61,517 nucleotides of DNA, from positions 1 through 61,517 of the IMG/VR virus record IMGVR_UViG_3300035128_000105, one strand, 5' to 3'. Each line of letters opens with the position of its first letter. The first letter of the stretch is position 1. Positions 3,849 to 40,300 of the stretch are shown piece after piece. The notes beneath the pieces were generated by a model. That model did not search any database, had not been told where the DNA came from, and saw only the letters and a program-made list of their open reading frames with translations. A program made the translations under genes and the position numbers. Source of the stretch: a virus.

Positions 3849-4007
3849 ATGCAGTATCATGGAACCATGTCTCGATGTCCTGGTTGCGGACGCGACCTCA
3901 GCTACAAGCGTCCCGAGCCAAAACACCAATGCCACGTCTGCCTTCGTCGGCTACGGAAACCAACCGCAACCACTCATGCGGCGTGGACCGAGTTTTTGGT
4001 ACCATAG
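3849..4007 (+). CDS. small zinc-ribbon ORF (CPGCG...CHVC)
   Basis: 52-aa ORF flanked by a 27-bp imperfect direct repeat; low support. Confidence 0.25.
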   Translation: MQYHGTMSRCPGCGRDLSYKRPEPKHQCHVCLRRLRKPTATTHAAWTEFLVP

Positions 4008-4231
4008 AACCGTGTCTCGACGTGCGCTCGAAAACAGTCTCAGGGAACTTCTCTACGACGTCAGTTACACTGAGATCGTACAAGCACTAGCTGAGCTAGC
4101 GGCCGAAGAAGGGTCGAACCTCGATGACGAAGCTGACACGCAAAAGAGCCAGGAAGAGGCCGAACACCTGGAAGAGGTCGCGCACTCGTTCAATCAGGCG
4201 TCAGACGTTCTCGATGAGTGTGCAACCAGGC

Positions 4232-4630
4232 TCAACCGTCTTCGTGTTTGAGTAGGGCAGCCGCCTCAGCGAGCGCTCTGCGCGTGTCTTCTTTCGACTG
4301 CTCGCCTTCTAGCGTCTCGTAGTAACGTCGTTGAAGGTCACGCTCGCTAACAGTTCGCTCTCCGATCTGTTCGTCCTCACTACTCACAGAGAGTACGGAT
4401 GTCATGGCACGCTTCACGTCGTCAGGCAACGGTGTGTTGTCGGAAAGGAACACGTTGAATAGGCGGTTGAGTGAGCTGAGAACAGCAGCCTCTTCGGATG
4501 CTAATTCCTCACCGCAAGCATGACGATACGCGAGCCAGTCACGTGTATTAATCAGGTCTTCAGGTTCGACCTTATTGTCGATGTAGTGGCGCCATGTTCG
4601 CAGAACACGGTCGATAGAATCGTCTACCAT
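4232..4630 (-). CDS. hypothetical acidic protein
   Basis: ATG at 4630, 14 nt downstream of release-factor stop; C-terminal part of the 4232..4987 ORF. Confidence 0.45.
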   Translation of the reverse strand: MVDDSIDRVLRTWRHYIDNKVEPEDLINTRDWLAYRHACGEELASEEAAVLSSLNRLFNVFLSDNTPLPDDVKRAMTSVLSVSSEDEQIGERTVSERDLQRRYYETLEGEQSKEDTRRALAEAAALLKHEDG

Positions 4631-4644
4631 TGACGAGAATTCTA

Positions 4645-5289
4645 CTACCAAAGACCCCTGACGTAATCCTTGAACCGCCACGAGCGGCCCGTAATGTGGT
4701 CCGTGACGCGACCATCCTGGACCCGAATCGTCCGACGCTTGTCGCCGCGCTGGCCTGAACCTACCTGTGCTTTGCGTTTTGTCGCACGTGCTTTCGCCGC
4801 CGACAACCGTTTCTGATCCCAGAGTTTGGCGCGCAGAAGTGCGAGCGCCGCTGCCCGATTTGCGTGCTGGGAACGTCCCGATTCGCAGCGCACGAGAGTC
4901 CCTGTCGGTAGGTGCTTGACCTGCACTGCACTGTTGGTGACGTTGCGATGCTGACCGCCCGCACCCGAGCCGCGACATGTACTCCATTCCAGGTCACGAT
5001 CAGGTAGCCGCAGCTCGACCTGTGTTGGCTCAGCTAGCACAGCGACCGTCACGGTACTGGTATGGACGCGTCCGCGTTTTTCTGTCTTGGGGACTCGTTG
5101 CCAGCGGTGGCCACCAGGCTCGTGCTGGAAGGTCTTCCAGGCGCCTGCGCCACTCACGTGGGCGACGATAAGACCAGGACGCTGGTCCACGACATCAAGG
5201 CTAAAGACCCCTCCGCGCAGCGAGGCGCGTGTAGATGGCCAGCTGCTCTTCGACGAGCTGCTTTGCGTCCGAGCCACCCTCGGCAGCAC
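4645..5289 (-). CDS. class I peptide chain release factor-like protein lacking N-terminal domain 1 (RF1-type PxT=PKT; PrfH/RF-H-like truncation)
   Basis: SGAGGQHRNVTNSAVQVKHLPTG GGQ motif; HRWQRVPKTEKRGRVHTS codon-recognition region aligning to RF1 [20 protein letters not shown]; C-terminal GRVTDH; GTG start with stop 2 codons upstream, so only about 214 aa. Confidence 0.7.
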   Translation of the reverse strand: MLPRVARTQSSSSKSSWPSTRASLRGGVFSLDVVDQRPGLIVAHVSGAGAWKTFQHEPGGHRWQRVPKTEKRGRVHTSTVTVAVLAEPTQVELRLPDRDLEWSTCRGSGAGGQHRNVTNSAVQVKHLPTGTLVRCESGRSQHANRAAALALLRAKLWDQKRLSAAKARATKRKAQVGSGQRGDKRRTIRVQDGRVTDHITGRSWRFKDYVRGLW

Positions 5290-5338
5290 GAATCTCTACG
5301 ATGCATGTCTTCATGGTTTTGGCGACTATAGCATACGT

Positions 5339-5713
5339 CTAGAGTGGCGCAGACTTCATTTGAGCCTTGATAAAACGCGCAGCACCGCCTTTGACTGCGA
5401 GGGCAGCACACAAAGCCGCTCTGAATTCGGGATCTCTGGTTGCACGTCTCAACGCATACTCTAGGCTTGCGTCGTAACTGAACGGTTGGCCAAATTGACG
5501 TGCTCGCTGCAAGGCAGCCCGGCAATCATGGTAGGTGTTGACGGCCCACTCAGGCGCAAAGTGGATTGGTAAGCCCGGAGGGTCTGTTTGGGGTGCGTAA
5601 CACGGAACGTCCCAGTCCTGAAGCAACTTGAAAAACCGCGAAGAAACCCTGAGGACTTTTTCGTCGCCACACGGAACAACACACGTCCATGCAGGAGCGA
5701 TTATCTTTGCCAC
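5339..5713 (-). CDS. hypothetical protein
   Basis: 124-aa ORF in minus-strand gene array. Confidence 0.4.
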   Translation of the reverse strand: MAKIIAPAWTCVVPCGDEKVLRVSSRFFKLLQDWDVPCYAPQTDPPGLPIHFAPEWAVNTYHDCRAALQRARQFGQPFSYDASLEYALRRATRDPEFRAALCAALAVKGGAARFIKAQMKSAPL

Positions 5714-6213
5714 AGCTGCTCCCCAAGGAAGTACGTGGGGTGGCGGCAGTACACGTCAAGACAACGGTCAGGCAAACCACAATCGTGAAAGTAGCCGCAG
5801 CAGCCGCACTTCAGGTCATCGGGGAGTTCAGCGTATCCCAAACTCGCTTCGCGTTGAGCTTTCCGTTTGACGCAATCACGTTCTACCGGGATAGGGTGAG
5901 CACGATCGTGGTAGACGCGGTCGAGCTTCATGATTGTCGGGTCGCGCCGGACTCCACCTAAACAACGCTTGCAGTATGCGATGGTATCGCCATCGTGTGA
6001 CGTCCACCGTGTTGCATCGTTTGAGCACCGCTGCCACGTACCCCTACCATCAGCGTAATGCGCCTCGCATTGCTGGGGTGTCTTGACGAGTCGTGTACGC
6101 ACTATCGTGACCAGGGTAAGACACTGGCGCCAGACACACGTGTGCGTCGCGCGTTTGAGTGTGCCATCTTTGATCACCCGCGCCATGTAGTCAGGCGTCT
6201 TGTCCGAGATCAC
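5701..6213 (-). CDS. cysteine-rich hypothetical protein
   Basis: 170 aa with many Cys/His (CKRC, CGCCGYFHDC). Confidence 0.4.
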   Translation of the reverse strand: MISDKTPDYMARVIKDGTLKRATHTCVWRQCLTLVTIVRTRLVKTPQQCEAHYADGRGTWQRCSNDATRWTSHDGDTIAYCKRCLGGVRRDPTIMKLDRVYHDRAHPIPVERDCVKRKAQREASLGYAELPDDLKCGCCGYFHDCGLPDRCLDVYCRHPTYFLGEQLWQR

Positions 6214-6418
6214 GCCACGTTTTTTCTACCAAAGGCCGCATCGGATCTCGGGCTGGCAGGTAGTGAAGGAACCAGCGTAGAGCACCAAGGTCCCCACCAT
6301 ATCCGTGGGGTTGTTTGTGCCCGGGCTCTCGATGGCACCTAGACGCTGCTCCCTGCTTGTCCGTGAACGGTTCGCCACAAATGGCAGGACGGATCGGCTC
6401 ATTGGTGCTGCGCGACAT
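6191..6418 (-). CDS. hypothetical protein
   Basis: fits exactly between flanking minus-strand genes. Confidence 0.3.
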   Translation of the reverse strand: MSRSTNEPIRPAICGEPFTDKQGAASRCHREPGHKQPHGYGGDLGALRWFLHYLPARDPMRPLVEKTWRDLGQDA

Positions 6419-6784
6419 TTACTCAGGCACTCCTTGACAGTCCGGGCAGACGTAATCCTTGGGTTCTTTTTCGACAACAAACCAGGTCCAACACTCACCG
6501 CACTTGCTCTTGTTGCACTTGTAACAGTACCAGCCGAGGTTGCTGCACTCTTCGCACTCGGGCTCGCCTTCGCCGTCAAAGAACGTGTTGAGACTGCCGC
6601 ACTCCCCGCATTCAGTGTCGTACTCATAGCCGCACGCAGTGTCGTACGTGACCTGGTGGAAACCGTTGGTCGTCTTGTCATCACTGGTGTTGCCACAACT
6701 GTAGCAGCGCCAGACAACAGGATCGTCTCGCCCATTATCGAATGGTTGCAGTATGTCGTCGTTTGTTGTTTGGACGAGTTTCAT
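6419..6784 (-). CDS. cysteine-rich (multi-CxxC) hypothetical protein
   Basis: 121 aa with at least 7 CxxC pairs (CYSCG, CGECG, CEEC, CYKC, CGEC, CPDC). Confidence 0.5.
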   Translation of the reverse strand: MKLVQTTNDDILQPFDNGRDDPVVWRCYSCGNTSDDKTTNGFHQVTYDTACGYEYDTECGECGSLNTFFDGEGEPECEECSNLGWYCYKCNKSKCGECWTWFVVEKEPKDYVCPDCQGVPE

Positions 6785-6954
6785 GAGGGCGCCATCGACC
6801 GCACCAGCGGCAGCAAATTGTCGTGGAAGTGCGTATTGGCCAATCCCAGACTACGTTTTCATGTGTGCGATGCCAACCGAACAGGCACAACAAGCATAAG
6901 GGGCCACGATGCACTTCCATATGGGGCGAACGGTATATCACACGTCAGCCTCCA

Positions 6955-7272
6955 TCACCTGCATACCTCCGCAGTGCACAGTCCACGCTCGTGACACGAC
7001 GGACAGTGGTGGTCAGCGTACTCGCACGGCGCGCGACCACGCTCTGCACGAGGCTTGATACCACAGTGATAGCAATCGCAGTCGCGCGGCCCATCGGTCG
7101 CAGAACGAGGCGACCACGGATGCGTTGGATCCTCGCAATCGCACGTCAACCAAACCGGATTACCGTTCTCATCGTAGGCCGACCAGCCGTGGCGACACGC
7201 AGCAGATTCGACATGGTGTGCTGGTGGAAGCGGCAAAGGGGTTGATGGTTGTTGGAATAAGTCGTCAGTCAT
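6955..7272 (-). CDS. cysteine/histidine-rich hypothetical protein
   Basis: CDCEDPTHPW, CDCYHCG, HHCPSCH motifs. Confidence 0.4.
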   Translation of the reverse strand: MTDDLFQQPSTPLPLPPAHHVESAACRHGWSAYDENGNPVWLTCDCEDPTHPWSPRSATDGPRDCDCYHCGIKPRAERGRAPCEYADHHCPSCHERGLCTAEVCR

Positions 7273-7523
7273 TCAGATTCGTTCTTTGTTAGCTCAGCAC
7301 ACAACGACCACTTCCAACCGTGTTCTTTGTGCACTTCTTCTCTCAGGGCCCAGTAAGGATCGCCATGCTGGTTGCCGGTCAGTACTTCGATGAAGAAACA
7401 CGTATCCGTGACTTGCCTAATACGCCATCGTCCCGCCAGCCAATCAGGAAACTCGAAGGAGAGCCTACTCGCCATTCTTACCGTTTGACAGAACAAGGTC
7501 ACGGTAGTGATCGCGCTCGTCAT
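7269..7523 (-). CDS. hypothetical protein
   Basis: 84-aa ORF, overlaps neighbours by a few nt. Confidence 0.35.
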   Translation of the reverse strand: MTSAITTVTLFCQTVRMASRLSFEFPDWLAGRWRIRQVTDTCFFIEVLTGNQHGDPYWALREEVHKEHGWKWSLCAELTKNESE

Positions 7524-7959
7524 GAAGACGGTTAACTTTTTCTACAAGCCGCTGGACGTCTTCCTCTAAGCATGCGACATGCGTTGCAAGACTTACCCAG
7601 GGTGCAGGAACAGCCAGCGGTACTTCCAGGTTACGGAATGCGGAGTACGCGAGGCACGAGACCTTGAGCAAGAACTCACGGGCTGCACCCGGAGGCCACG
7701 GCAGTGTTTTTGGCCGTGTCCGATTGGCTGTCACATCCTGATGAGGCGTACTTTTTGTGCTGTGCCCGACAGGAATACTTTTTGTGCTGCGCCCGATAGG
7801 AACGCTTTTGATCTCGTGACCACCATTGCCGTCAGGAATAATGGCCGTCACACGACTAACGTAGCCAGGAACGTCTGTCGTGCGAAACACGTCCCGAACA
7901 CGAACACCGCCGTGTTCAGCTTCGTTCACCCAAAAACCATCGACCAAAATCTCAATCAC
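7465..7959 (-). CDS. hypothetical protein with in-frame 27-bp tandem duplication
   Basis: peptide SVPIGRSTK/SIPVGHSTK encoded by tandem DNA repeat 7749..7802. Confidence 0.4.
   Translation of the reverse strand: MIEILVDGFWVNEAEHGGVRVRDVFRTTDVPGYVSRVTAIIPDGNGGHEIKSVPIGRSTKSIPVGHSTKSTPHQDVTANRTRPKTLPWPPGAAREFLLKVSCLAYSAFRNLEVPLAVPAPWVSLATHVACLEEDVQRLVEKVNRLHDERDHYRDLVLSNGKNGE
7749..7802 (-). repeat. 27-bp tandem duplication (x2) inside CDS
   Basis: TACTTTTTGTGCTG(T/C)GCCCGA(C/T)AGGAA twice. Confidence 0.85.
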
Positions 7960-7970
7960 GGCGTGGGCTC

Positions 7971-8507
7971 CTATTTTGGGCCGACGAGCATCGTCATGAC
8001 ACGGTTTTCGTAGCGAGCGGCTCGTTCGAGCTTGGCAACATCGACCAGGTCCGCCATCAACTTGTCGAGCGCGGCGCGACCCGTTCTGGGATGCGCATTT
8101 TCACGGCCACGAAATCGCACTTCAAACTGGACCCGGTTGCCGGCTTCGAGGAATTTGCGAGCTGCTTTGGCTTTGAACGCCAGGTCGTGCGTGTCCGTTT
8201 TTGGGCGCAGCTTGATGATCTTCAACTCGACTTTGGCTTGGCGTTTTTTCTGTTCGTTCTTACGCTTCTTTTCGTCGTACTTGAACTTACCAAAGTCCAT
8301 GATCTTACAGACAGGTGGACGTGCATTGGGTGACACCTCAACCAGGTCAAGTCCCAGCTCGGCTGCTTTCGTGCGCGCGTCGTCAGTTGGCATGACACCG
8401 AGCTTGGTACCGTCTTCGAGGACAACGAAGACCGGCGAAAAACGGATGCGGCTATTGGTGCGAGGCCCGGTTGGTCTTGGACGGTTACCGTGAGACTGTC
8501 TACCCAA
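7971..8507 (-). CDS. infC: translation initiation factor IF-3
   Basis: LDLVEVSPNARPPVCKIMDFGKFKYDEKK and RFRGRENAH match IF-3 N- and C-domains; TTG start preceded by GGAAGGAAG SD. Confidence 0.85.
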   Translation of the reverse strand: MGRQSHGNRPRPTGPRTNSRIRFSPVFVVLEDGTKLGVMPTDDARTKAAELGLDLVEVSPNARPPVCKIMDFGKFKYDEKKRKNEQKKRQAKVELKIIKLRPKTDTHDLAFKAKAARKFLEAGNRVQFEVRFRGRENAHPRTGRAALDKLMADLVDVAKLERAARYENRVMTMLVGPK

Positions 8508-8528
8508 TTTGATCTTCCTTCCATACGT

Positions 8529-9071
8529 TCATTTGTTTTGTCGTTCCTCCGAACGATCCTTCATGGCTTCATCGAGACTGCTGTATTGCGGTAGCTCGTC
8601 ACGTTCCCACTTGCACCCGTTGCATTTACACTCAGGACCCACCATAGCAAAGCCGCATGACAAATAGGTCTTGCCGTCTTTGCTCCAGATGCCGTCTTCG
8701 CCCCAAACAGCACCATCGTTACCATCTGGTGTACCAGGAGGCGGCACCGCCTTGGCAGCTGTCGGCATTTTGGGCACAGGGATTGGATTCTTTTGCCAAC
8801 GACGAAATCGCGCAAATTTGAATGCCCGCCGATCAGCGATGCGTACTTTGTTCAGCCCACAGTACTGCGAGACGAAGTCGATGGCTGCCAGGACATCTCC
8901 CAACTCGCCTTCGAGACGGTCTTTCAGGTTTGTACCGTCCCAGTGCATGATTTCGCCGCTGCTACCAATGAGCTTGCCGCAGACCTGTCCCACCTCATTG
9001 CACTCCTCAATGAGTTTACTGATCCCAGGCCAACGGTTGGAGCCGATAGAAAAGTCGCCGCTGTCAGGCAT
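8529..9071 (-). CDS. MazG-like nucleotide pyrophosphohydrolase domain protein with C-terminal Cys cluster
   Basis: KLIEECNEVGQVCGK...LEGELGDVLAAIDFV resembles the MazG/NTP-PPase EExGE...ELGDVL signature. Confidence 0.55.
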   Translation of the reverse strand: MPDSGDFSIGSNRWPGISKLIEECNEVGQVCGKLIGSSGEIMHWDGTNLKDRLEGELGDVLAAIDFVSQYCGLNKVRIADRRAFKFARFRRWQKNPIPVPKMPTAAKAVPPPGTPDGNDGAVWGEDGIWSKDGKTYLSCGFAMVGPECKCNGCKWERDELPQYSSLDEAMKDRSEERQNK

Positions 9072-9072
9072 G

Positions 9073-9570
9073 CTAATGCTTGTCGGCGCAGTCTTTGACC
9101 ACGCATTCGTGTCGTTCGCAGTAGTCTTCAGCTTTCAGCCGTTGCCGTTGTGCTTCACGTAGACGGCGGCGCCGACTAGCCATAACTTGTGCCCGGTAAC
9201 AGATGTCAACAGCAACCGGACCGTTGCGACGAACGCGTGTACGGTCACCAAAATGTTCAATAAACGCATGAAGGGTGGCTTCGTCGAACGGCTCAAGAAT
9301 AGCGTCTACACCGTCTTCAAACGCGATCCTGAGTTCCGCAACGTCATTGGACACTTGATGCGTCAACTCGTCGATGTTCAGATCGCTGCGTGACTCACGC
9401 GGGTTGTCGGCAAGCGCGTTACGCGCCTTCTCGCGTACCCAACTCGACAAATGCGCCTTGATGTCATCGGCGCGGCCTTCTTCAACAAGTTTTTTCAGGT
9501 CGTCGCAGTTGTCGTCGATGCCACACTCAGCGAGATAGCAGACAAACTGCTCAAGGTTTTTGGCCCCCAT
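9073..9570 (-). CDS. hypothetical protein
   Basis: 165-aa ORF. Confidence 0.4.
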   Translation of the reverse strand: MGAKNLEQFVCYLAECGIDDNCDDLKKLVEEGRADDIKAHLSSWVREKARNALADNPRESRSDLNIDELTHQVSNDVAELRIAFEDGVDAILEPFDEATLHAFIEHFGDRTRVRRNGPVAVDICYRAQVMASRRRRLREAQRQRLKAEDYCERHECVVKDCADKH

Positions 9571-9958
9571 CAGGTGGCGATTTTACATCGTGGTAGCTTT
9601 TTGGCAACGCTTTCTGAGGCGGAGGTCGCTTGATTCGACGTAGGTGACTGGCTCGACGCTCGTCAATGTTTTTCTGTAGATCGGCGTACTTGGCGTGACA
9701 GGCCTCAACGTCCTTACCCAGACGCCGCAACTCGAACATCACGAGCTTGAAGGTCGTGTCAGTCTGCTTGTCGATCTTGGTCGCGCTCTGTTGGACGTTG
9801 TTGACCTTGTCTCGCGCTGCACGCGCCGTGTCACGTGCCTCCAAATATGAAAAGAAGGGAACCGCGATGGCTGCAGCAAGCGCAACCCACGGCGCTGTCG
9901 TTTGGGCTTTTTGTCTGGCAGTCGTTTTGATCTTGGTTGGGGTTTCGGTGTCTGGCAT
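9551..9958 (-). CDS. hypothetical membrane protein (1 TM)
   Basis: ATG at 9958 directly after upstream gene stop (9961); TM WVALAAAIAVPFF. Confidence 0.4.
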   Translation of the reverse strand: MPDTETPTKIKTTARQKAQTTAPWVALAAAIAVPFFSYLEARDTARAARDKVNNVQQSATKIDKQTDTTFKLVMFELRRLGKDVEACHAKYADLQKNIDERRASHLRRIKRPPPQKALPKSYHDVKSPPDGGQKP

Positions 9959-12530: not shown

Positions 12531-13325
12531 TCAGTCGCTGTCGGTTGTCTGAAACACGTCGGAACTGAGTTCGCCGAGCATATCCAGCAGCTTATAGCCA
12601 AGCTCGTAGCGGCCGATCTCCCACGCACCTTCAAACGCCAGACGGTATTCTTCTACAGACTCGCGGCCGTCTAGCGCATCACGGTAGCGCCAACGTACGA
12701 CCCGTTCGGCGACGTCGTGGAACGGTAGTCCCTCGTCCAGCACACGCTTGACGATCCGGTGAAGGAACGTGTTGTAGGCGTGCCCTCCACCGTCTGAACG
12801 TGATGCCCATTTTTGGATGAGGACGGTCGCAAGTGCTGCGATCTCGCCTGCTGAAAACCAACGGCTCGCGATGGGCTGTTGGGCCTCAGGCAACGCGTTC
12901 GGGTCAATACCGTAGGCACTTTGCCGTGCCTCGTCGCCGTATTGTCGGGCCGTGTAGTAGATCCGTGAGATGTGGTCGTCGCCGTTGTACTCTTCGAGCG
13001 CTTCTGGCAAAAAGACGTCCATGATCTCACCGTTAGCGAATGCCTCAACAAGCCGGAGAGCCCGTGTGATGGCCTTTCGGGCGTCCGGCAGCTCAACATG
13101 ACTATCGTCGGTCTCGGCCTCTACGCGGCCCCTGAACGGCCCGTGACCCTCGTCGATGCTGCGTAGCTTTGGCGCACGGGGAAGCACGAGACGACACAGG
13201 TCGGCTGCGAGGCCGGCAGCACGAGAACCGTGGTTCCACGGCAACTTAAACCAGGGAGCGTAGTCACCGTCCATGTCTTGTTCCCATTGCTGCTTCCACG
13301 ACGATCGAGCGAGCAATCTTTCCAT
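12531..13325 (-). CDS. hypothetical protein
   Basis: ORF 12531..13448 trimmed to internal ATG; start uncertain. Confidence 0.45.
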   Translation of the reverse strand: MERLLARSSWKQQWEQDMDGDYAPWFKLPWNHGSRAAGLAADLCRLVLPRAPKLRSIDEGHGPFRGRVEAETDDSHVELPDARKAITRALRLVEAFANGEIMDVFLPEALEEYNGDDHISRIYYTARQYGDEARQSAYGIDPNALPEAQQPIASRWFSAGEIAALATVLIQKWASRSDGGGHAYNTFLHRIVKRVLDEGLPFHDVAERVVRWRYRDALDGRESVEEYRLAFEGAWEIGRYELGYKLLDMLGELSSDVFQTTDSD

Positions 13326-13863
13326 GTTCTGCGGACCAAGCCGCTGCCGCAGCGAGACGGATGTTGGGTGGGACGTTGTTGACGGGCGTGTCGTGGAGCC
13401 AGTCCCGGATGCGCCATCTGAGTTCGATCCGTTGGGTTTCGTCATCACTTCCCTCTTGTTCGTCGAGCGCTTGTATCAGTCTGGCGTTGAACAAGCCGTC
13501 TGTGTGCTGCGTCGCCAACATAACACACGCGTCCTCCATCAACTCACGTTGCAACACTGCAAGCGGATACGTGGGTAGGTCGTCGGCGGCGCCGATCGGA
13601 AATGAAAAGTCACCACGTTTGCTGATGTGCCAGCCTAAAATGCGCGCGACGCGTTGCAATACCCGCCGCCGCTCTGCATCAGTCTTTGCACGTAACGCTC
13701 CCCGCCAGAGCGCGGTGGAAGCGTTCCAACACTTGAGTTGGCCGTACCACCGCGCTTTAGGTGTTTTACAGAAGAACTCCGCGATCTCGGCCGCACACCC
13801 CGCTGCGTAAGCGGGGTGCTCCCATCGCATGAGGAGACGCGGACGCCCTAGCTCGAAGCTCAC
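13264..13863 (-). CDS. hypothetical protein
   Basis: 199-aa ORF. Confidence 0.4.
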   Translation of the reverse strand: MSFELGRPRLLMRWEHPAYAAGCAAEIAEFFCKTPKARWYGQLKCWNASTALWRGALRAKTDAERRRVLQRVARILGWHISKRGDFSFPIGAADDLPTYPLAVLQRELMEDACVMLATQHTDGLFNARLIQALDEQEGSDDETQRIELRWRIRDWLHDTPVNNVPPNIRLAAAAAWSAEHGKIARSIVVEAAMGTRHGR

Positions 13864-28842: not shown

Positions 28843-31485
28843 ATGAATCCCGTCGTCACGCCTTTCGCTCGACGACCCGACTGGTTCGTCGTGCCCGCCG
28901 AATGGCTGCCGGAGCTGGCTGGCGTACCAGGCGTGACGTTATTGGGCAGTGCAGGTGGTGTCCACCGCTCTCATCTACCCCTGCTGGCGCAAGCGCACCC
29001 TGAAGTGCACCCGTTTTTGAACGTGCCGTTGGAGAACCAGGCGGCGCGTAGTCGCCTAGATGCATCGACAGAACCACTGGGGTTCAAACTGCGTCCATAC
29101 CAACACGAAGGTCGCGAGTTTATCCATGCGCGACGAGGGACGTTGCTGGCCGATCAGATGAGACTGGGGAAAGGGCAGCCATTAGATGCATGCGTTTTGA
29201 CGCCCACAGGGTGGAAAACGATGGGCGATCTAATTGTAGGCAGCCGAGTCGTTGATCCCGACGGTGGCGAAGGCGTGGTGGAAGATATTTTTCCTCGGGG
29301 ACGCCAACGGGTCTACCGCGTCACGACGTGCGATGGTCGGAGTACCGAGTGCGACGAAGATCATTTGTGGTTGTTGCATACTGCGCATTCTCGGTGGCGC
29401 GGCGGAGATCCGCGTCCACGTGCGCTCAAAACGTTCAAAGACAACCTCTGGATCAAGACGCCAAGCCGATCGTGGGGGCGCGGCAACCGCCGTTTCTTTT
29501 TACCTTTGTGCCGACCGCCTGAAGGCGAAGATACCGATCTCTTCGTCGAACCGTACTTGTTGGGTTGCTTGCTGGGAAACGGCATGCTGCGCAGCGGCAC
29601 GCCCGAGATTTCAACGTCTGAGCGGGAGATTTTAGATCGCATTCGTCCGTCCCTCTCAGCTTACGGCGTCGTACCCAAAGCTGCTGGTGGTGTTGATTGG
29701 CGATTGTCCAGTCCAGCAGGGCAAGAAAACAAGCTAACGACAGCACTGCGTGCGCTGAAGTTGTGGGGCTGTGGTGCACAAGACAAATTCATTCCAGTCC
29801 AATATCTTTCCGCGTCGGTTCCTGTGCGGCGAGCACTCTTGCACGGGTTGATGGACACAGACGGAGACGTCACCGAGGAGCGGATCACGTCGTACAATAC
29901 AGTGTCTACACGTCTGAAAGATGACGTACGTGCGTTGATTGAAAGCCTGGGAGGTTTTGCCTCGGTTTACTACAAGGCGGCGCCACAGTATTCGTATCGT
30001 GGCGAGAAACGTGAAGGGCGCCCGTCTTATCGACTTCACATCCGGCTGCCCGCCAACCCGTTTCTGTTGGCTCGAAAAACGCAACGCTGGTCGAAGGGCC
30101 GCCTGGCGCGAGGCCTTGAAAGCGTTGAGTACGTTGGTGAGAAAGAAACGCGCTGCATCCAAGTATCAACGAAGCGCGGGCTTTACGTCACTGATGGCTT
30201 TATTGTCACGCACAACACGGCCACAAGCGTGATGTCCCACGATCCGGGCCTCGGGCCTCTCGTCATTGTTGCACCGCTGGCTACACGTGCTGTCTGGGTC
30301 GGTTGGATGAAACGGCGTTGGCCTGACGTCGAACCTGTCGTCTTGCGGGGACGAAAATATGACCCGACGAAGATCAGCGATGCGCCGTGTATCTTCATCC
30401 ACTACGACATCCTCCAAGCTCACCAGAATATGGGTCTACGCCGTCCAGGAACACTCGTATTCGACGAAGCGCACATTCTACAAAACCGTCGATCGAAACG
30501 CAGTCAGGCTGCAATTCTACTTGCGTCCCGCGCTGAGCGTGTCATCGCTGCGACCGGCACGCCGCTATGGAATCGGCCCATCGGGCTTTGGACAATTCTG
30601 TCAGTAGTCAACCCTGGAGCCTGGAATTCGTACTACGATTTTGCTCAGCGATACTGCGCCCCGAAGCTTACGGCCTACGGTACACGCTACGATGGTAGCT
30701 CGAACGAAGCTGAATTCAAACTACGAATAGCTGAGGTCATGATTCGTCGTGAATGGCGCGACGTACTAGAGGATCTACCTCCGTCGGAGCGAACCGTCGA
30801 GGTGGCCGACCTCACAGAAAGTCAGCTGTTCAAGCTCGAAGTTGCAGCCGAGAAAATTCGCGATCCGAGTAAACGCCGCGTCGCCGCAGGCGACATGGTG
30901 CGGTTTCGACGCCTCATCGGGCAGTACAAGGCAAAGTTGGCAGTGGACGTGGCGTCCCGTGTGCTTGCCGGTGAAGAGCCTGTCGTCGTCTGGGCCTGGC
31001 ATAGAGACGTTGCTGACAAAATCGCGACGAATATCGCTAAGCGGGACTACATCGCGTACTGCATTACAGGCGCCGACGATCAGGACGCACGTGACAGGAC
31101 TATCGACGAGTGGAAACGGCATCCTGTCGCCGCACTTGTACTGACAATTCCCGTCGGTCAAGTAGGTATCGATCTGTCACACGCGCGGCAGGCTATTTTT
31201 GCAGAGGTTGACTGGACACCTTCGACGGTAGCCCAAGCCGAGATGCGTACGTTCTCTCCGTACCGCCCCATGGCCATTACCTACCTCGTCGTTGATCACG
31301 ACGTCGATCGAGGTCTTATCGAGACCCTTCAACATAAATGCGAATTGGCCACGACGATTGGAGTCCCAGCGTCCGATACTGCTATCGATGTAATCGCCAG
31401 TGCCTTCGGGTTAAACCCCGACGATGCGGATATGGATCGATTAATGAAAGCCTTCCTCGCGGGTTATGACGGCGAGAGCAATTAA
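28843..31485 (+). CDS. SNF2-family DNA helicase interrupted by an intein
   Basis: LRPYQHEG, motif II VFDEAH, helicase C-domain; intein 29191..30216 inserted at P-loop region. Confidence 0.85.
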   Translation: MNPVVTPFARRPDWFVVPAEWLPELAGVPGVTLLGSAGGVHRSHLPLLAQAHPEVHPFLNVPLENQAARSRLDASTEPLGFKLRPYQHEGREFIHARRGTLLADQMRLGKGQPLDACVLTPTGWKTMGDLIVGSRVVDPDGGEGVVEDIFPRGRQRVYRVTTCDGRSTECDEDHLWLLHTAHSRWRGGDPRPRALKTFKDNLWIKTPSRSWGRGNRRFFLPLCRPPEGEDTDLFVEPYLLGCLLGNGMLRSGTPEISTSEREILDRIRPSLSAYGVVPKAAGGVDWRLSSPAGQENKLTTALRALKLWGCGAQDKFIPVQYLSASVPVRRALLHGLMDTDGDVTEERITSYNTVSTRLKDDVRALIESLGGFASVYYKAAPQYSYRGEKREGRPSYRLHIRLPANPFLLARKTQRWSKGRLARGLESVEYVGEKETRCIQVSTKRGLYVTDGFIVTHNTATSVMSHDPGLGPLVIVAPLATRAVWVGWMKRRWPDVEPVVLRGRKYDPTKISDAPCIFIHYDILQAHQNMGLRRPGTLVFDEAHILQNRRSKRSQAAILLASRAERVIAATGTPLWNRPIGLWTILSVVNPGAWNSYYDFAQRYCAPKLTAYGTRYDGSSNEAEFKLRIAEVMIRREWRDVLEDLPPSERTVEVADLTESQLFKLEVAAEKIRDPSKRRVAAGDMVRFRRLIGQYKAKLAVDVASRVLAGEEPVVVWAWHRDVADKIATNIAKRDYIAYCITGADDQDARDRTIDEWKRHPVAALVLTIPVGQVGIDLSHARQAIFAEVDWTPSTVAQAEMRTFSPYRPMAITYLVVDHDVDRGLIETLQHKCELATTIGVPASDTAIDVIASAFGLNPDDADMDRLMKAFLAGYDGESN
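29191..30216 (+). mobile_element. LAGLIDADG intein (342 aa) in SNF2 helicase
   Basis: starts CVLTPTGW, ends VTHN followed by T; LAGLIDADG blocks YLLGCLLGNG and LLHGLMDTDGD. Confidence 0.8.
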
Positions 31486-31601: not shown

Positions 31602-34355
31602 ATGACAGCACGCAGCAGTGACGCGACAACTGGCGTCACCACGACACCACCAGGCCTCGTGCGCCTGCCGACAACCGAAGTCGCTCCAGCGATCACCGAG
31701 ATCGCGCCGCCGATCGACCAGCCAGGCGACCAGCCAGGCGACCAGCCAGGCGACCAGCCAGGCGACCAGCCAGGCGACCAGCCAGACGACCAACCTTCTG
31801 CGGGTGTAGAACCTGTGCAATGCGTGGTTTGTGGCGCCGAAATGGATGCGACGACCGCTGAGGATATTTATCAGCATCCTGCTGATAAACCTTGTGTCGT
31901 TGTTTTGACGGACGGGAAGGGCGAGTCTATCGACCGCCAATTCTTCGTCGCTCAAGACGGCAACATCTATGTGATCGAGGCTGAAGCGGAGAGCACGCTG
32001 CCTCCAGTTCCACCGGAGGACGTCGTTACCGTCACACAAGAACCGACGGCCGACGCGGGTACTGCACCGGGTGAGGACGACGACATCGTTGAACTCGGCG
32101 AGCCTGTACTGCCTGACGTTTTTGGAGGCGAAAGCCCGAAGAAACGCAAACGCAAAACCAAAAAGAGCGACAACGTCGTGTTGCCGTCGAACGCCGCTGA
32201 GACCGCCGATGGCGACATCCTCATCCCGCTCAACCCGGATCCAGCAATTCCCACAATGGAAAAAGGGTTGCTGGCCGCGTTCGACAAGTATGGCTTGGAG
32301 CGCCTGGGTGGCGCCTCTGGGGATCTGGGTTGGTCGAGCTTCTCGTGTTACCAGCGCTGTCCTTACCTCTTCAAGCGGATGTACATCGACGGAGAAAAAG
32401 AAGAGGGACGTCCGGGACGTGCTATCGAGATCGGTTCGTGCTTTCACACGTTCGCTGCAATCCATTACCAAAAGATCATCACTCCCGATTATCCGCTCAC
32501 ACCCGACGAACTACACAAGTTTCTGATCGACTTCGGCGTGTCCATGGAGGCGTTGAGCGAAGCGTGGCGTGTGTGGGAAGGGTACCGCTTCGAGTACGAA
32601 GCCGACTACTTGGTCCCTTTGGCGGTCGAGTACCACATCGTCGATCCGAAAACCCGTGAGTCAGCTCGTTACGACTTGATCGCCAAAGTTGAGAAAGCTC
32701 ACCCCGGTGTTCCCGCAGGTACGTACGTAATCGAGCATAAGTGTTTGGTGGGTACCGAAATCATCGACGATCCAACGGGTCGTCGCGCGACCGTCGCCGA
32801 GCTGTACAACCGACAGCAGCCCTTCACGTGTCTGGCGTTTGACTCGAACGAAAGCGCCCTCGTGCAAGTCTCTGCCGATGTTCCACGTCCGACGACAGTC
32901 CGCGACGTCTATACGGTCACGACGGCTACCGGACGTCAATTGGCGACATCGGACAACCACCCATTCTACACGGCACGCGGCTGGGTACCCGCCGCCGATT
33001 TACGAACCGACGATTGGGTTGCGGTGCCAGCCACGACGGCTAGTAAGGAGCGTCGTCGAGAACTGTACACCGACGCCGAACTCATGTTCATCGGACATAT
33101 GATCGGCGATGGTTCCGCGAATCAGAACATCAAGTACACAAAGCAAGATCCGAAGCTTCGTGCGGCCTTTGTGGCGATCTTGCACAAACTTGATTTGTGC
33201 GCAGCAACCGCCGTCCGCGCCGGCACCTACCGTGTGGATCCCGGTGATGAAGATCATGCGCCGTCCATTGTACTTTCCAGTGCTAAGAAAGGCCGTGCCT
33301 GGCAACTCCTCAATCGTGTTGGGTTGCTGGGCAAACGCTCTCCAGAGAAGACACTAGACCGATCCTTGTTTGAATTGCCCGATCGGCAAACGCGGATCCT
33401 TCTTGCCGCGTTGTGGGATACCGACGGCTGCATCGACCTGTTTGAGGAACGGCGTCACGACAAGTCATCCCAGACCAAGGTCCGTATCGCGTACGCTTCA
33501 AGGTCCGAAGCGCTTTGTCGCGGCGTACAAACACTACTTCTTCGTCTTGGAATTAACAGCTCTTTGACGCAGTCGAGCGTCGAGTACGAAAGTGAGCGGC
33601 GTCCGTACTGGACAACAAAGGTAATCGGACGTGAAGCCAAACGCGCGTTCGTACGTGAGATCCAAACACGGGCCGTGCCTTGTGAAAAGTTTTCCGAGGA
33701 CTGGTTACGACAGGTACAAGAAGCAATCAAACCGGGGGACGATCGCCCCATACCAACTGCACTTATTGCCGGGTTAGCGATGACTAGCACGCAGCGCAGC
33801 AAACTGATCGGGGCGTCTACGAGGCCCAAGCATAGTGTGTACGCTTCGACGCTCGAAGCAGTACTGGAGGACGCAGCAAAGCCGATTCTGGCACCCCCAA
33901 TCCACTGGGATCGCGTGCAGTCGGTGCTCGTGACGGGCCGCGAAATGATGTATGACATCACAGTTCCGTTCGTTCACACATTCGTCGCCAACGACATCAT
34001 CACCCACAACACCGCAGGACGGTTCGATGATGCGACTCTCGACGGTTGGCGGAACGACGGTGAGATTCTAGGCCAAATCATGCTGTGGAAACGCCTCAAG
34101 CTGAAGAAGAAGTTCGGCAAGCTTCAGGGCGTGATGGTGAATGTTGTAGGCAAACAGAAAATCCAAAAGTTTCATCGGACGATCGTGCCGCCGCAACGCT
34201 GGCAAACGAATCAACACAGCAAAGACCTCAAGGTTTGGCAAGGCCTCCGGGTGTTAGCCATGGCCAGCAACACGTTTCCGCGTGCGCGGGCTAACTGCAT
34301 CGGTCGCTACGGCAAGTGCTCCCAGTGGCCCCACTGTGCGGACAGGGAAAAGTAG
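31602..34355 (+). CDS. Cas4/RecB-family PD-(D/E)xK exonuclease with N-terminal (PGDQ)n repeat, interrupted by an intein
   Basis: YQRCPYLFKRMY, D...IEHK motif split by intein, C-terminal Cys cluster CIGRYGKCSQWPHC. Confidence 0.75.
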   Translation: MTARSSDATTGVTTTPPGLVRLPTTEVAPAITEIAPPIDQPGDQPGDQPGDQPGDQPGDQPDDQPSAGVEPVQCVVCGAEMDATTAEDIYQHPADKPCVVVLTDGKGESIDRQFFVAQDGNIYVIEAEAESTLPPVPPEDVVTVTQEPTADAGTAPGEDDDIVELGEPVLPDVFGGESPKKRKRKTKKSDNVVLPSNAAETADGDILIPLNPDPAIPTMEKGLLAAFDKYGLERLGGASGDLGWSSFSCYQRCPYLFKRMYIDGEKEEGRPGRAIEIGSCFHTFAAIHYQKIITPDYPLTPDELHKFLIDFGVSMEALSEAWRVWEGYRFEYEADYLVPLAVEYHIVDPKTRESARYDLIAKVEKAHPGVPAGTYVIEHKCLVGTEIIDDPTGRRATVAELYNRQQPFTCLAFDSNESALVQVSADVPRPTTVRDVYTVTTATGRQLATSDNHPFYTARGWVPAADLRTDDWVAVPATTASKERRRELYTDAELMFIGHMIGDGSANQNIKYTKQDPKLRAAFVAILHKLDLCAATAVRAGTYRVDPGDEDHAPSIVLSSAKKGRAWQLLNRVGLLGKRSPEKTLDRSLFELPDRQTRILLAALWDTDGCIDLFEERRHDKSSQTKVRIAYASRSEALCRGVQTLLLRLGINSSLTQSSVEYESERRPYWTTKVIGREAKRAFVREIQTRAVPCEKFSEDWLRQVQEAIKPGDDRPIPTALIAGLAMTSTQRSKLIGASTRPKHSVYASTLEAVLEDAAKPILAPPIHWDRVQSVLVTGREMMYDITVPFVHTFVANDIITHNTAGRFDDATLDGWRNDGEILGQIMLWKRLKLKKKFGKLQGVMVNVVGKQKIQKFHRTIVPPQRWQTNQHSKDLKVWQGLRVLAMASNTFPRARANCIGRYGKCSQWPHCADREK
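31719..31790 (+). repeat. 12-bp tandem repeat (CAGCCAGGCGAC)x6 encoding (QPGD)n
   Basis: read directly from sequence. Confidence 0.9.
32742..34010 (+). mobile_element. LAGLIDADG intein (423 aa) in Cas4-like nuclease
   Basis: starts CLVGTEIIDDPTG, ends ITHN followed by T; LAGLIDADG blocks FIGHMIGDGS and LLAALWDTDGC. Confidence 0.75.
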
Positions 34356-37331: not shown

Positions 37332-40300
37332 ATGCCCAGTCCACCTAGATTTGGTGGCCCAGGCGGCTTGCCAGAGCCTGTATTGGGGCGCGGGAATCAG
37401 CTGCCGTTGTTTCGAGGAAAAACGGATGGTGCTGACTGCGCGCACTGTCCGTTTTCGCGTGATGGACGGCCGAATCGACCCGTAGTGGGAGAGGGCCCGG
37501 AGAATCCAAAATGGCTCGCAATCGGTGAAGGCCCTGGTCGCAATGAAGTCGCGATGGGAAGACCCTTCATCGGGGCCTCGGGTCAGATGGTCAACAAGGC
37601 GCTTCAAGCCATCCGACGACCGCGCGATCAAATATGGGTGGATAACTCCACATTGTGTCAACCTACTCCCTACGCGACCGACGAAGACAAAAAACTGGCC
37701 CGTAAATGTTGTGAGCCACGGTTCCGCGCACAAATCATGCAGTGGCCCGATCGGCCCATTCTCGCGTTAGGAGCTATCGCCGCCAGGGCGTTTTTGGGCA
37801 CGAGGTTCTCGATCAACGAGATGGCCGGTTCGTACCACTGGATCGAAAAGAAAAAGTGGGGCGCGCGAGCAGTCATTCCAACGATTCACCCCGCTGCCAT
37901 CTTGCGAGGCGGTGGTGGTATTGGTGGCGCGCATGCACCAGATCTTGCGTTTTGGAACCTGATCTACGATATGGCGAAAATCGATGCCATTGCCAACGGC
38001 AAGGACATCGTCTTTCGCGAAGATGACATTGCTACGGAGTACGAAGATCCAAAACGCGCTGAGCAGCTCGTGCGCCAGATGGTCTTGGACGCTCGTGCGT
38101 GTGGCATGATCGCGACAGATACTGAGACGTACGTCGAAGACGAGAGGAAACACTCGGCGCTTCAACCTCTGAACGCCAAGATGAGTGCGCTGGGTCTAGC
38201 AACGGAAGGATGGGGCCTGTCGGTTGCGTGGAACATCATGACGCCGTACGCCAAACGACTGGTCGCGAACGTTTTTGCTGATTACAACGTTCGCAAGGTC
38301 ATGCATAACCGGCTGTACGACCGTCCGGTACTCGCGCGACACGGCTTACCGGTGTATGGCCCAAACGACGACACAATGTTGCGTCATCATTCGGCGTTTC
38401 CAGGGCTATCTCATAGCCTGCAACGTGTAGCGACACAGTATTTCGCCATCACTCCCTGGAAAGCCGAGTTCCGCAAAGGTCACGACACGCCCGAAAACCT
38501 CACACGATACAACGCCAAAGACACACTGGTCACTGCACGAATCGACGCGCCGCTTACGATCGCACTCAAAAAAACGCAGTCCGAGCGTACGTACGAGATC
38601 GACCTCAAATCCACGGAAGTCGCCCAATGGATGCACGAAAAAGGTGTGCCTGTTTCACGTGAGGTCAATCAGCAACTGTACAACACGTTCCTGGAAAACA
38701 TGACTCAGGCCCGACAGGTCATGGAAGATGCTGCCTACGATCCAGCTATCCAAAAGAAGTTGTGGGATCGACTAGCGTTTGAGCAGGCCAAACGCATTCG
38801 CAAAGCCGATCCGATTGACGACTTCGAGGCGCGGCACAAGACTCGTCTCGAAGAAATCCAACACGCACACAACAAAGGACGTTGGCAGTGGAAGATTGGA
38901 TCGGGCGAGCACGTCGCTGCTTACCTCAAAGCGCGCGGCGTTCCGCTGTATTTCATGACGCCGACCGGACGTACGTCCACCAAAAAAGAAATCCTCGAAC
39001 AGTTTTCTCACCTGCCCGAAGTTCAATCCTTGCTGGATTACCGCGAGAACCAAAAGATGTTCTCGACCTTCGTCTACAGGTTTTTCGATCGATACGATGT
39101 GAACGGGAACATCGTTAAGTACGGATACGCGGACGAGGACAGCCGCATTCATCCGCGTTGGTCAGTCCACAAAATCACGGGTCGCTGGGGAGCCGAAGAC
39201 CCGATGTGCTTCGACGGCGACACGGAGATCCTTACTGAGAACGGTTGGGTCCGGTTCGATGCGCTTCCACGCAATGTTCGGGTGGCGCAGTATCATCTGG
39301 AGGATCGCATTGTAGATTTTGTTCATCCAACAGACTACATCGAGCGCCATCACGCCAGTTCGATGGTACGTCTACAAGGGAAAAATATCGATCTCGTTGT
39401 CACGCCTGATCACCGCTTCCCTGTACGACCTCGCCCCCGAAGGCGGTGCTCGAACCCACGATGGCGGGACATACGCGCTGATGCGTGGAAAAAAGAATAT
39501 CAACTCCCTGTTGCGGGCCGATACGTAGGGGGCTCGTGGGCTCCGTCTCCGGCCTACGTGTCCTTTGTATGTGCGGCGCAAGCAGACGGATCGTGGAACG
39601 GTTACGGCTGGTATTTTGGCCTCAGTAAGACGCGAAAGATAGAACGCCTACGCAACGTACTTGACACGTTGGGCCTGTCGTACCGTTTGACCGACAAAAC
39701 CGAACCGGACCCGTTTCGTGAAGGCACTTTTCGGACACGAAAAATAATCTACGTGCACAAATCCGAGGTGGGCGATGAAGTCGCACAACGGTTGGGGTTA
39801 ACAACGGGACAAACCGGGAAAGGCTTGTTCGGCGCGTGGGTCCTTGACCTCACAGCAACAATGTTGAACCAGTTTGCACTGGAGATCGAGTTTTGGGACG
39901 GCTGTCCAACACGTGAAGGGCAATTTGCGTCCTCACAGAAACAAAGTGCTGATTGGGCCCAAATCGCGTTTGTTTTGACAGACCGTCGCGCAAAAATTCG
40001 TCCATACAACAGCGGTGCCCTACAAACAAAGACGAATTGGCAAGTAGACGTAGCACGTCGCACGCGGACTAAAGGCGCTACGTGGTACATCGGAACTGAC
40101 CAGGCAGTAGCCACGGAAATTCCTGGATCAAAAATTGTTTACTGCGTCTCCGTCCCTTCGTCGTATATCCTCGTACGCCGCAACGGGAAAGTGGTTGTCG
40201 CCGGAAACTGTCAGAACTGGCCGAAGGCGAACAAAAAGAAGGGACGGCCCAATCTGCGGTCCCAGGTCGTTGCGCCGGACGGTCGTATCTTTGTTGGGTT

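Follow-up and report, generated by a model that had tools for sequence, protein, structure and literature searches.

A prfB-like +1 frameshift cassette conserved in an RF1-type release-factor gene of huge phages

Introduction

Autoregulatory +1 frameshifting of a release-factor gene has so far been treated as a feature of RF2 only. In bacterial prfB, a G-rich Shine-Dalgarno-like (SD-like) element lies 3 nt before a CUU codon, an in-frame stop comes next and is followed by C, and a short frame-0 open reading frame (ORF), functionless alone, precedes the body of the factor, which is in the +1 frame (PMC5009743). A 2025 survey that covered more than 12,000 bacterial genomes reports 8,164 prfB motifs, none of them with TAG and 98.6% with one stop, described as nearly always TGA; in prfA it detected no programmed frameshift (PMC12421855). 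Here we describe a release-factor gene in a 61,517-nt stretch of viral DNA (IMG/VR record IMGVR_UViG_3300035128_000105, positions 1 to 61,517; hereafter the window) together with its relatives, huge-phage genes for an RF1-type release factor whose synthesis is probably gated by a conserved programmed +1 frameshift or, in a few of them, by an in-frame stop.

Readthrough-based autoregulation of release factors was proposed decades ago and had never been found in bacterial release-factor genes, and an early in-frame stop with continuation in the same frame is unknown for RF1 and RF2 genes, according to a 2016 review which also cites the release-factor gene of an amoebal giant virus as using both readthrough and frameshifting (PMC5009743). 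That case, the eRF1-type gene of Mimivirus and Megavirus, shares with the phage genes described below that a viral class-I factor passes internal stops by frameshift and readthrough (Jeudy et al. 2012, PMC3521657), and its authors read the internal stops as bacterial-style autoregulation. It differs in its unrelated eRF1 fold, in its eukaryotic host and in combining the two events within a single gene, whereas different phages have the one or the other.

Genes for IF1, IF3, RF1 and RF2 are reported in phage genomes larger than 200 kb (Al-Shayeb et al. 2020, PMC7162821; Iyer et al. 2021, PMC7824862), and the release-factor and IF-3 genes of the window fit this reported picture. Searches of these two papers by term brought up no mention of frameshifting in PMC7162821 and, in either paper, no account of a phage release-factor gene or of a missing domain 1. 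Furthermore, no frameshifted phage release-factor or RF1-type gene was found described in the full-text literature, the journal coverage of which is incomplete, so that a prior description is possible.

The release-factor gene is laid out in two frames

On the minus strand of the window, a GTG-start ORF of 214 aa (4645-5289) matches the Pfam RF-1 family at 7.8e-30 and the tail of PCRF. Alone, this ORF covers just the last 40 PCRF positions, and with the NCBIfam models it reaches 198 bits for RF1 (model positions 157-316 of 347), 113 for RF2, 72 for PrfH and 37 for ArfB. The initial annotation of the locus, made from the sequence without database searches, had taken the gene to begin inside domain 2. 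This start proved to be too far downstream, since a 37-codon ORF that had been missed, opening at ATG 5314, supplies the beginning of domain 2 by way of a +1 shift at CTT-TAG (5206-5201).

The frame-0 segment (5204..5314, minus strand) comprises codons 1-37, from ATG 5314-5312 to CTT 5206-5204 (MKTCIVEIRAAEGGSDAKQLVEEQLAIYTRLAARRGL), and matches the family profile in its own frame with 44 bits. Its translation (MKTCIVEIRAAEGG...RRGL) corresponds to the first strand and helix of release-factor domain 2, including the invariant E12-G13-G14 tip. It sits one base behind the frame of the 214-aa ORF and terminates with CGG AGG GGT CTT TAG C, in which the codons CGG-AGG hold an internal SD-like GGAGG (5210..5214, minus strand), a GGT spacer follows (5209-5207), and the shift site (5200..5206, minus strand) is composed of the slippery CTT (5206-5204), the stop TAG (5203-5201) and a C at 5200. 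A +1 slip from CTT to TTT, by which the T of TAG is skipped, makes AGC (5202-5200) the next codon. The +1-frame segment (4648..5202, minus strand) then holds codons 38-222, that is the remainder of domain 2/4 with P75-K76-T77 (5091-5083) and domain 3 with G119-G120-Q121 (4959-4951), and the gene is closed by tandem stops, TAG TAG (4642..4647, minus strand). Each of the prfB elements outlined above is thus present: the G-rich element 3 nt before CTT, the in-frame stop followed by C, the short frame-0 ORF and the factor body in the +1 frame.

Joining the two frames gives a 222-aa protein with an unbroken alignment to the RF1 model (104-316 of 347, about RF1 residues 104-320). The RF1 score rises from 198 to 224 bits, the start of the model match moves from 157 to 104, and the PCRF match grows from 42 to 89 residues. 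At the junction the joined protein reads ...GL-SLDVVDQRPG... (junction peptide GLSLDVVDQRPGLIVAHVSGAGAWK). The JGI gene calls on the 78-kb source contig contain the same pair, with a 37-aa ORF (weak PCRF match) overlapping the 214-aa ORF.

That domain 1 is not encoded, as had been proposed, was borne out: the alignment starts at position 104 of 347 of the RF1 model, or at residue 106 of 354 of Thermus thermophilus RF1, and the upstream ORF 5339-5713 has no PCRF match. A frameshift site providing domain 1 had been named as a finding that would make this an ordinary RF1 gene; a frameshift site does exist, and what it supplies is the start of domain 2, not domain 1. An upstream source of domain 1 was considered and rejected, as neither of the ORFs at 5339-5713 and 5701-6213 is matched by a Pfam family and none of the neighbouring genes is conserved over 79 viral loci. 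The first of these, encoding 124 aa, ends with a TAG (5339-5341) that is in frame with the release-factor ATG eight codons downstream. At the other end of the gene, the sequence ...AGG GGT CTT TGG TAG TAG (4642-4662, minus strand) repeats the shift-site AGGGGTCTTT in its last four sense codons, with TGG replacing the stop, which is probably a coincidence of a conserved R-G-x-W C-terminus.

The cassette is conserved across relatives

In order to place this layout among relatives, a profile scan of IMG/VR was used, which returned 208 contigs; the best 80, mostly of 100-470 kb, were taken and 74 distinct sequences analysed, shifts and stops being located by a frame-by-frame hidden Markov model (HMM) search of all loci. 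A +1 shift is required at HMM position 37/38 in 62 of the 74 distinct relatives, and in 61 of these 62 CTT stands directly before the frame-0 stop, which is TGA in 44, TAG in 14 and TAA in 3. Directly behind the stop comes C in 45 of the 61 and G in 14. GGAGG is found exactly 3 nt before CTT in 32 and GGGGG in 5 (37/61 together). The nearest relative, locus L172, which is 81% identical and comes from an independent assembly, has the identical CGGAGGGGT-CTT-TAG-C.

Codon choice at the site is strongly biased. Indeed, the leucine codon is CTT in 61/61, compared with 18.5% of leucine codons elsewhere in the same genes, and an Arg-Arg pair at codons 34-35 is written CGG-AGG in 31 of 35 cases where about 1.8% would be expected from the codon usage of the same genes. 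Both biases indicate selection at synonymous sites. Conversely, five uninterrupted genes of the family have neither GGAGG nor CTT at that codon, as is reported for prfB genes without the frameshift (PMC12421855).

Uninterrupted copies occur on two very large contigs, of 764 kb (L168) and 640 kb (L170), whose local content is phage-like with many small ORFs lacking a Pfam match. A bacterial origin of these contigs was considered and set aside on account of that content; if they are phages, they would be at or above the largest phage genome given in PMC7162821, 735 kb.

A further group of relatives carries an early stop in frame instead of a shift. At codon 38 this is the case in L004 (CTA-TGA-CTG), L007 (TAT-TAG-ATG) and L008 (CTC-TGA-CTG), and the sister loci L070 and L074 share an in-frame TGA-CTx at codon 46; in all four TGA cases CT comes next. 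They may represent the same gate in a leaky-stop form, or else come from phages whose stops are recoded. A comparison of ORF lengths on the 6-kb loci spoke clearly neither for nor against whole-genome recoding as the cause of these five stops; in L008 and L070 a neighbouring gene seems to end at TGA, which counts against recoding.

Altogether an early stop that needs bypass is present in 67 of the 74 genes (61 with CTT-stop, one other +1-shifted, five with in-frame stops), a recurrence for which neither sequencing error nor a pseudogene can account. A broader form of the same doubt holds that the locus is a pseudogene or an assembly error, that the 214-aa ORF alone is translated from GTG 5289, or that two separate polypeptides are made. 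Gene callers do annotate two overlapping ORFs, and the GTG opens the +1 ORF 29 codons upstream of the junction. Such an explanation is nonetheless extremely improbable, being already contradicted by the conservation data: the interruption at the same codon with an invariant CTT is found in 61 distinct sequences, 45-65% identical and from independent metagenomes; the frame-0 segment is conserved as protein in every locus (28-44 bits); its invariant E-G-G tip aligns with RF1 residues reported to read the first stop base; and the +1-frame sequence before the junction is unconserved, with start positions that vary. Moreover, GGQ, the disruption of which had been named as the mark of an inactivated gene, is intact in the product and invariant in the family alignment.

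A protein search brought up a large family whose members, release factors of about 220 aa, lack domain 1. About half of its best 120 matches are 5'-truncated ORFs with N-termini ...GGVFD... or ...GGVFS..., which result from out-of-frame translation of GGAGGGGTCTTTGAC or ...TTTAGC. Many public proteins that bear the name 'peptide chain release factor 1' and are 170-215 aa long (P0001, P0002, P0007, P0027 and others) are likewise 5'-cut or have an out-of-frame start, since gene callers do not join two frames.

The product is an RF1-type factor without domain 1

The joined product scores highest with the RF1 models TIGR00019 and NF001859, at 215.5 bits (cut-off 423.25) and 224.3 bits (cut-off 400), which lie far below these full-length cut-offs, compared with 135 bits for RF2 and 81.5 bits for PrfH (TIGR03072, cut-off 166.65). 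The ArfB model matches residues 100-133 only, with 36 bits against a cut-off of 100. The same ranking holds in nine family members, with 210-237 bits for RF1, 120-165 for RF2 and 60-97 for PrfH. Sequence matches in the PDB are to RF1 at 1e-46, RF2 at 1e-27 and PrfH at 1e-12, the last in the GGQ domain only. The nearest cellular sequences among the matches listed are ordinary RF1 proteins, with 38-46% identity. An AlphaFold model (pLDDT 86.7) matches ribosome-bound RF1 with a TM-score of 0.90 and a root-mean-square deviation of 2.1-2.2 Å, whereas PrfH comes at rank 50 with 0.65.

The PDB alignment spans residues 106-319 of 354 of T. thermophilus RF1 and pairs G13 of the product with G116, D16 with E119, Q72 with Q181, P75-K76-T77 with P184-V185-T186, H84 with H193 and T85 with T194. 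These RF1 residues (G116, E119, Q181, P184-V185-T186, H193, T194) are what we take to be the stop-codon readers in the RF1 termination complex 4V63. The alignment of the family shows no variation at E12, G13, G14, Q72, S86 and GGQ. The GGQ and the RF1-type P-K-T tripeptide that the initial annotation had pointed out were therefore confirmed. With RF1 (prfA) the phage factor has in common the best-scoring family, PxT, GGQ, the equivalents of Q181, H193 and T194, and the fold; it differs from RF1 in lacking domain 1 and the last 25-30 residues, in a six-residue deletion in a domain-2 loop and in being frameshifted.

The architecture of PrfH (RF-H) had been proposed for the gene. What the two share is that PrfH is a class-I paralog of about 200-230 aa which lacks domain 1 and keeps GGQ (PMC1586002), but the recognition region of the phage factor is of RF1 type, there is no adjoining RtcB, and the TIGR03072 and fold matches are weak. 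ArfB, for its part, consists of the GGQ domain and a basic C-terminal tail, unlike the phage factor, which has the codon-recognition domain 2/4. Membership of either family was ruled out by the HMM scores and the fold.

The product is, judged from sequence and modelled fold, a phage subfamily of RF1 ancestry, that is a class-I release factor without domain 1, and the RF1 recognition residues it has kept make stop-codon-dependent termination at UAA and UAG its most likely activity. The lack of domain 1 is compatible with such an activity: in PMC1586002 and PMC6076264, both citing Mora 2003, domain 1 is given as dispensable for codon-specific release, RF3 as still recycling RF1 without it, and domain 1 as aiding delivery via bL12.

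It is unlikely that the protein is instead a stop-independent rescue factor in the manner of PrfH or ArfB, which would free ribosomes stalled by ribotoxins of the host or of competitors and whose dosage would be limited by the frameshift. Domain 1 is missing as in PrfH, and recognition loops are altered or deleted in some relatives. In addition, a ligase-like protein, about 200 aa long and bearing the nucleotidyl-transferase motif KxDGxN, adjoins the release factor in seven viral loci (L027, L029, L030, L056, L057, L065, L079), and in L170 a PF09414 RNA ligase (8750-9808 of the 640-kb contig) comes directly after it; these neighbours recall the PrfH-RtcB pairing, but they are not general, the seven loci being limited to two subclades. 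Against rescue stand PrfH and ArfB scores far under their cut-offs and under RF1, the conserved RF1 codon-recognition residues, the fold, the absence of a neighbour conserved over the 79 loci, and the absence of RtcB among the neighbouring ORFs and the window ORFs of at least 300 aa scanned, which were all but 12531-13448. The search for RtcB or suppressor tRNAs that had been suggested was hence negative on both counts, as Rfam detected no suppressor tRNA in the whole window and tRNA-His is its sole RNA gene.

IF1 and Thg1 are also found near the release factor of L170. In L002 and L003 (also in P0066 and P0072) the recognition loop is shortened to HRWQEKSGGRMQTS or HRWQEVSGN... compared with HRWQRVPPTEKRGRVHTS, so that PxT is lost while the CTT-TAG cassette is kept.

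A prfB-like gate with negative feedback is proposed

By analogy with prfB, a ribosome starting at ATG 5314 would pause after 37 codons, CUU occupying the P site and UAG-C the A site. GGAGG, 3 nt upstream, would pair with the tail of the 16S rRNA and favour a slip of peptidyl-tRNA-Leu from CUU to UUU, and UAG-C, as a poor termination context, would allow this slip into the +1 frame, from which the full factor results. If a release factor reached UAG first, only a 37-residue peptide would be made. Termination at UAG would thus compete with the slip, and output of the factor would fall as RF1-type activity rises; as this activity would be that of host RF1 plus the phage factor itself, the outcome would be negative feedback. 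The stop of the window, UAG, matches the predicted specificity of a PxT factor, so that negative autoregulation is the simplest reading here. Having no domain 1, the factor would do without the contacts of that domain to L11 and bL12.

The phage factor may add to the termination capacity of the host, for a genome with many genes ending in TAG. Among the window ORFs of at least 150 aa (n = 48) the stops are TAG in 18, TGA in 17 and TAA in 13; among those of at least 100 aa (n = 64), 25 end in TAG, and over both size cut-offs TGA accounts for 17-25 and TAA for 13-14. About 38% of the called longer genes of the window therefore terminate at TAG, which is high for a genome of 57% GC, and both the release-factor and the IF-3 gene are among the genes ending in TAG.

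The position of the gate differs from that of its bacterial counterpart. The prfB shift site (codon 26 of E. coli RF2) lies in domain 1. The phage site is at codon 37/38, about RF1 residue 140, in domain 2, whereas prfB shifts at codon 26 of E. coli RF2 (PMC5009743), and these non-homologous positions make an independent origin likely. The phage gene further differs from prfB in being RF1-like, not RF2, in being phage-borne, and in its stop, which is UAG here and any of TGA, TAG and TAA over the family whereas 98.6% of prfB motifs have one stop. That the cassette recurs in an RF1-type gene, with UAG and at a position not homologous to that in prfB, and is conserved over dozens of huge-phage lineages points to convergent evolution of a recoding device.

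Taken as a whole, we consider it likely that a prfB-like +1 frameshift gates a phage RF1-type terminator with negative feedback, the IF-3 gene being ordinary and not mechanistically tied to it. Several points weigh against this account. We infer the efficiency of the frameshift and its regulation by analogy with prfB; no obvious Shine-Dalgarno precedes ATG 5314; and the SD-like element is missing in 12 of the 61 CTT-stop loci. In the product, the residue aligned with RF1 E119 is D, and many relatives have PPN for PxT or Q for H193, while a few have a deleted recognition loop. Above all, the shift-site stop is TGA in 44 of 61 although all tested members are RF1-like, so that the sensor there cannot be simple RF1-type self-regulation. 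The identity of this stop has switched many times on the tree. The only protein residue tracking TGA versus TAG is codon 38 itself (the next column has p = 3e-4 over 635 tests), and no relation was seen between the shift-site stop and the stop usage of flanking genes, the GC content of the locus or the terminal stop of the gene itself.

Possible reasons for a UGA site are that host RF2 is sensed, either directly or because an RF1-type factor takes UAA and frees RF2, that the device is mainly a dosage limiter, or that the factor reads beyond UAA and UAG. The first two of these shade into a different explanation, which is tentative and clearly less probable than feedback by the factor itself: the frameshift would act as an attenuator of fixed strength, or would sense how much termination capacity, mainly RF2, the host has in general. 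It would hold a potentially toxic factor at a low level set by the host, and would not be autoregulation by the phage factor. It would accommodate the interchangeable stops with their many switches, the lack of a covarying protein residue and the RF1-like character of all tested members whatever their stop, and overexpression of release factors is reported to be toxic (PMC12421855). On the other hand, the UAG of the window combined with a PxT product favours self-regulation here, an indirect loop is possible at UGA sites through the RF1-type factor taking UAA termination and freeing RF2, and the explanation differs from the autoregulatory one only in the factor that is sensed.

The third reason can be taken further, to the doubtful possibility that the phage factors have a broadened, maybe omnipotent, stop reading and that the cassette is a true autoregulatory 'stop-codon gate' able to use any of the three stops. 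If so, this would explain both the free interchange of UGA, UAG and UAA at the shift site without change in the recognition loop and the members whose frameshift is replaced, at the same codon, by a leaky stop in frame.

Under the preferred reading of a prfB-like gate with negative feedback, large phages would tune termination too, beyond initiation and tRNA supply, with a minimal release factor lacking domain 1. The natural CUU-UGA, CUU-UAG and CUU-UAA variants form a set for probing what the device senses. Given that gene callers split or truncate such genes, many 'release factor 1' entries of 180-215 aa are 5'-cut artefacts.

The IF-3 gene is an ordinary infC homolog

The window also encodes IF-3 on the minus strand (7971..8507), an infC homolog of 178 aa which starts with TTG (8507-8505), 6 nt after the SD-like GGAAGGAAG (8514..8522, minus strand), and stops with TAG (7973-7971). 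It is complete, with IF3_N (6.8e-29) and IF3_C (4.5e-29) matched end to end in Pfam, and clears the infC equivalog model TIGR00168 with 195.8 bits against a cut-off of 60 (positions 5-168 of 170). The claim of a full IF-3 gene with a TTG start behind a Shine-Dalgarno, close to the release factor, was accordingly correct. An in-frame TGA stands 8 codons before TTG 8507, and no other possible start lies between the two. In an alignment with a 68%-identical phage IF-3 (L164), the TTG falls on the ATG start of that homolog. The gene as called by JGI, from an internal ATG (140 aa), would lose part of IF3_N. These observations support the TTG start.

A likeness to the autoregulatory AUU start of bacterial infC had been suggested, and what is shared is a non-ATG start behind a Shine-Dalgarno on an IF-3 gene. 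UUG belongs to the canonical start class AUG/GUG/UUG and is not rejected by IF-3, and the four other phage homologs (L164-L167) all start with ATG, which leaves little of this likeness. Only in L172 is a non-canonical start possible: at 4216-4330 of this 39-kb contig a CTG aligns with the TTG of the window, 6 nt after GGAAAGGAA, and the alternative in-frame start is a GTG 11 codons upstream without a Shine-Dalgarno. CUG is of the class discriminated against by IF-3. The CTG is a weak hint of weak-start usage in the lineage of the window, nothing more, and the IF-3 of the window is a complete infC homolog of the ordinary kind.

The release factor and IF-3 genes had furthermore been read as a joint module, in which a PrfH-like truncated factor and a non-ATG IF-3 would together remodel host termination and initiation. 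Both genes are real, on the same strand and 2.66 kb apart, the pairing is kept in L172, and the CTG of L172 lies at the aligned IF-3 start. This reading is quite improbable, however, since the factor is RF1-like and not PrfH-like, the other phage IF-3 genes have ATG starts, the two genes are about 110 kb apart in the phage carrying L006 and L164, and IF-3 is near the release factor only in the window, L172 and L020 (1 of 83 loci apart from L172). The two genes as a conserved pair were thus rejected except for the nearest relative. Of the initial annotation as a whole, the two genes, the GGQ, the PKT and the TTG start of IF-3 stand, and the start inside domain 2 does not. The ORFs around the two genes show no informative domain, and an Rfam scan of 4000-9500 (E at most 1) found no known RNA element at the shift site or upstream of infC.

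Other features of the window

The window is part of a large phage genome and covers a replication region with a DnaG-type primase, an SNF2 helicase, a Sak4-like protein, a fusion of uracil-DNA glycosylase (UDG) and PolA, and a Rad3-type helicase. Three replication genes bear LAGLIDADG inteins: domain matches indicate intein or LAGLIDADG homing-endonuclease insertions in the SNF2 helicase (28843-31485), in a PD-(D/E)XK-type protein (31602-34355) and in a 1624-aa protein (37332-42206), all on the plus strand, the last being the fusion of uracil-DNA glycosylase, 3'-5' exonuclease and PolA. Within the same replication region, an 881-aa protein on the minus strand (20936-23581) matches domains of the eukaryotic vault particle, with a Major Vault Protein shoulder domain at 5.5e-26 and a vault repeat at 7.6e-11.

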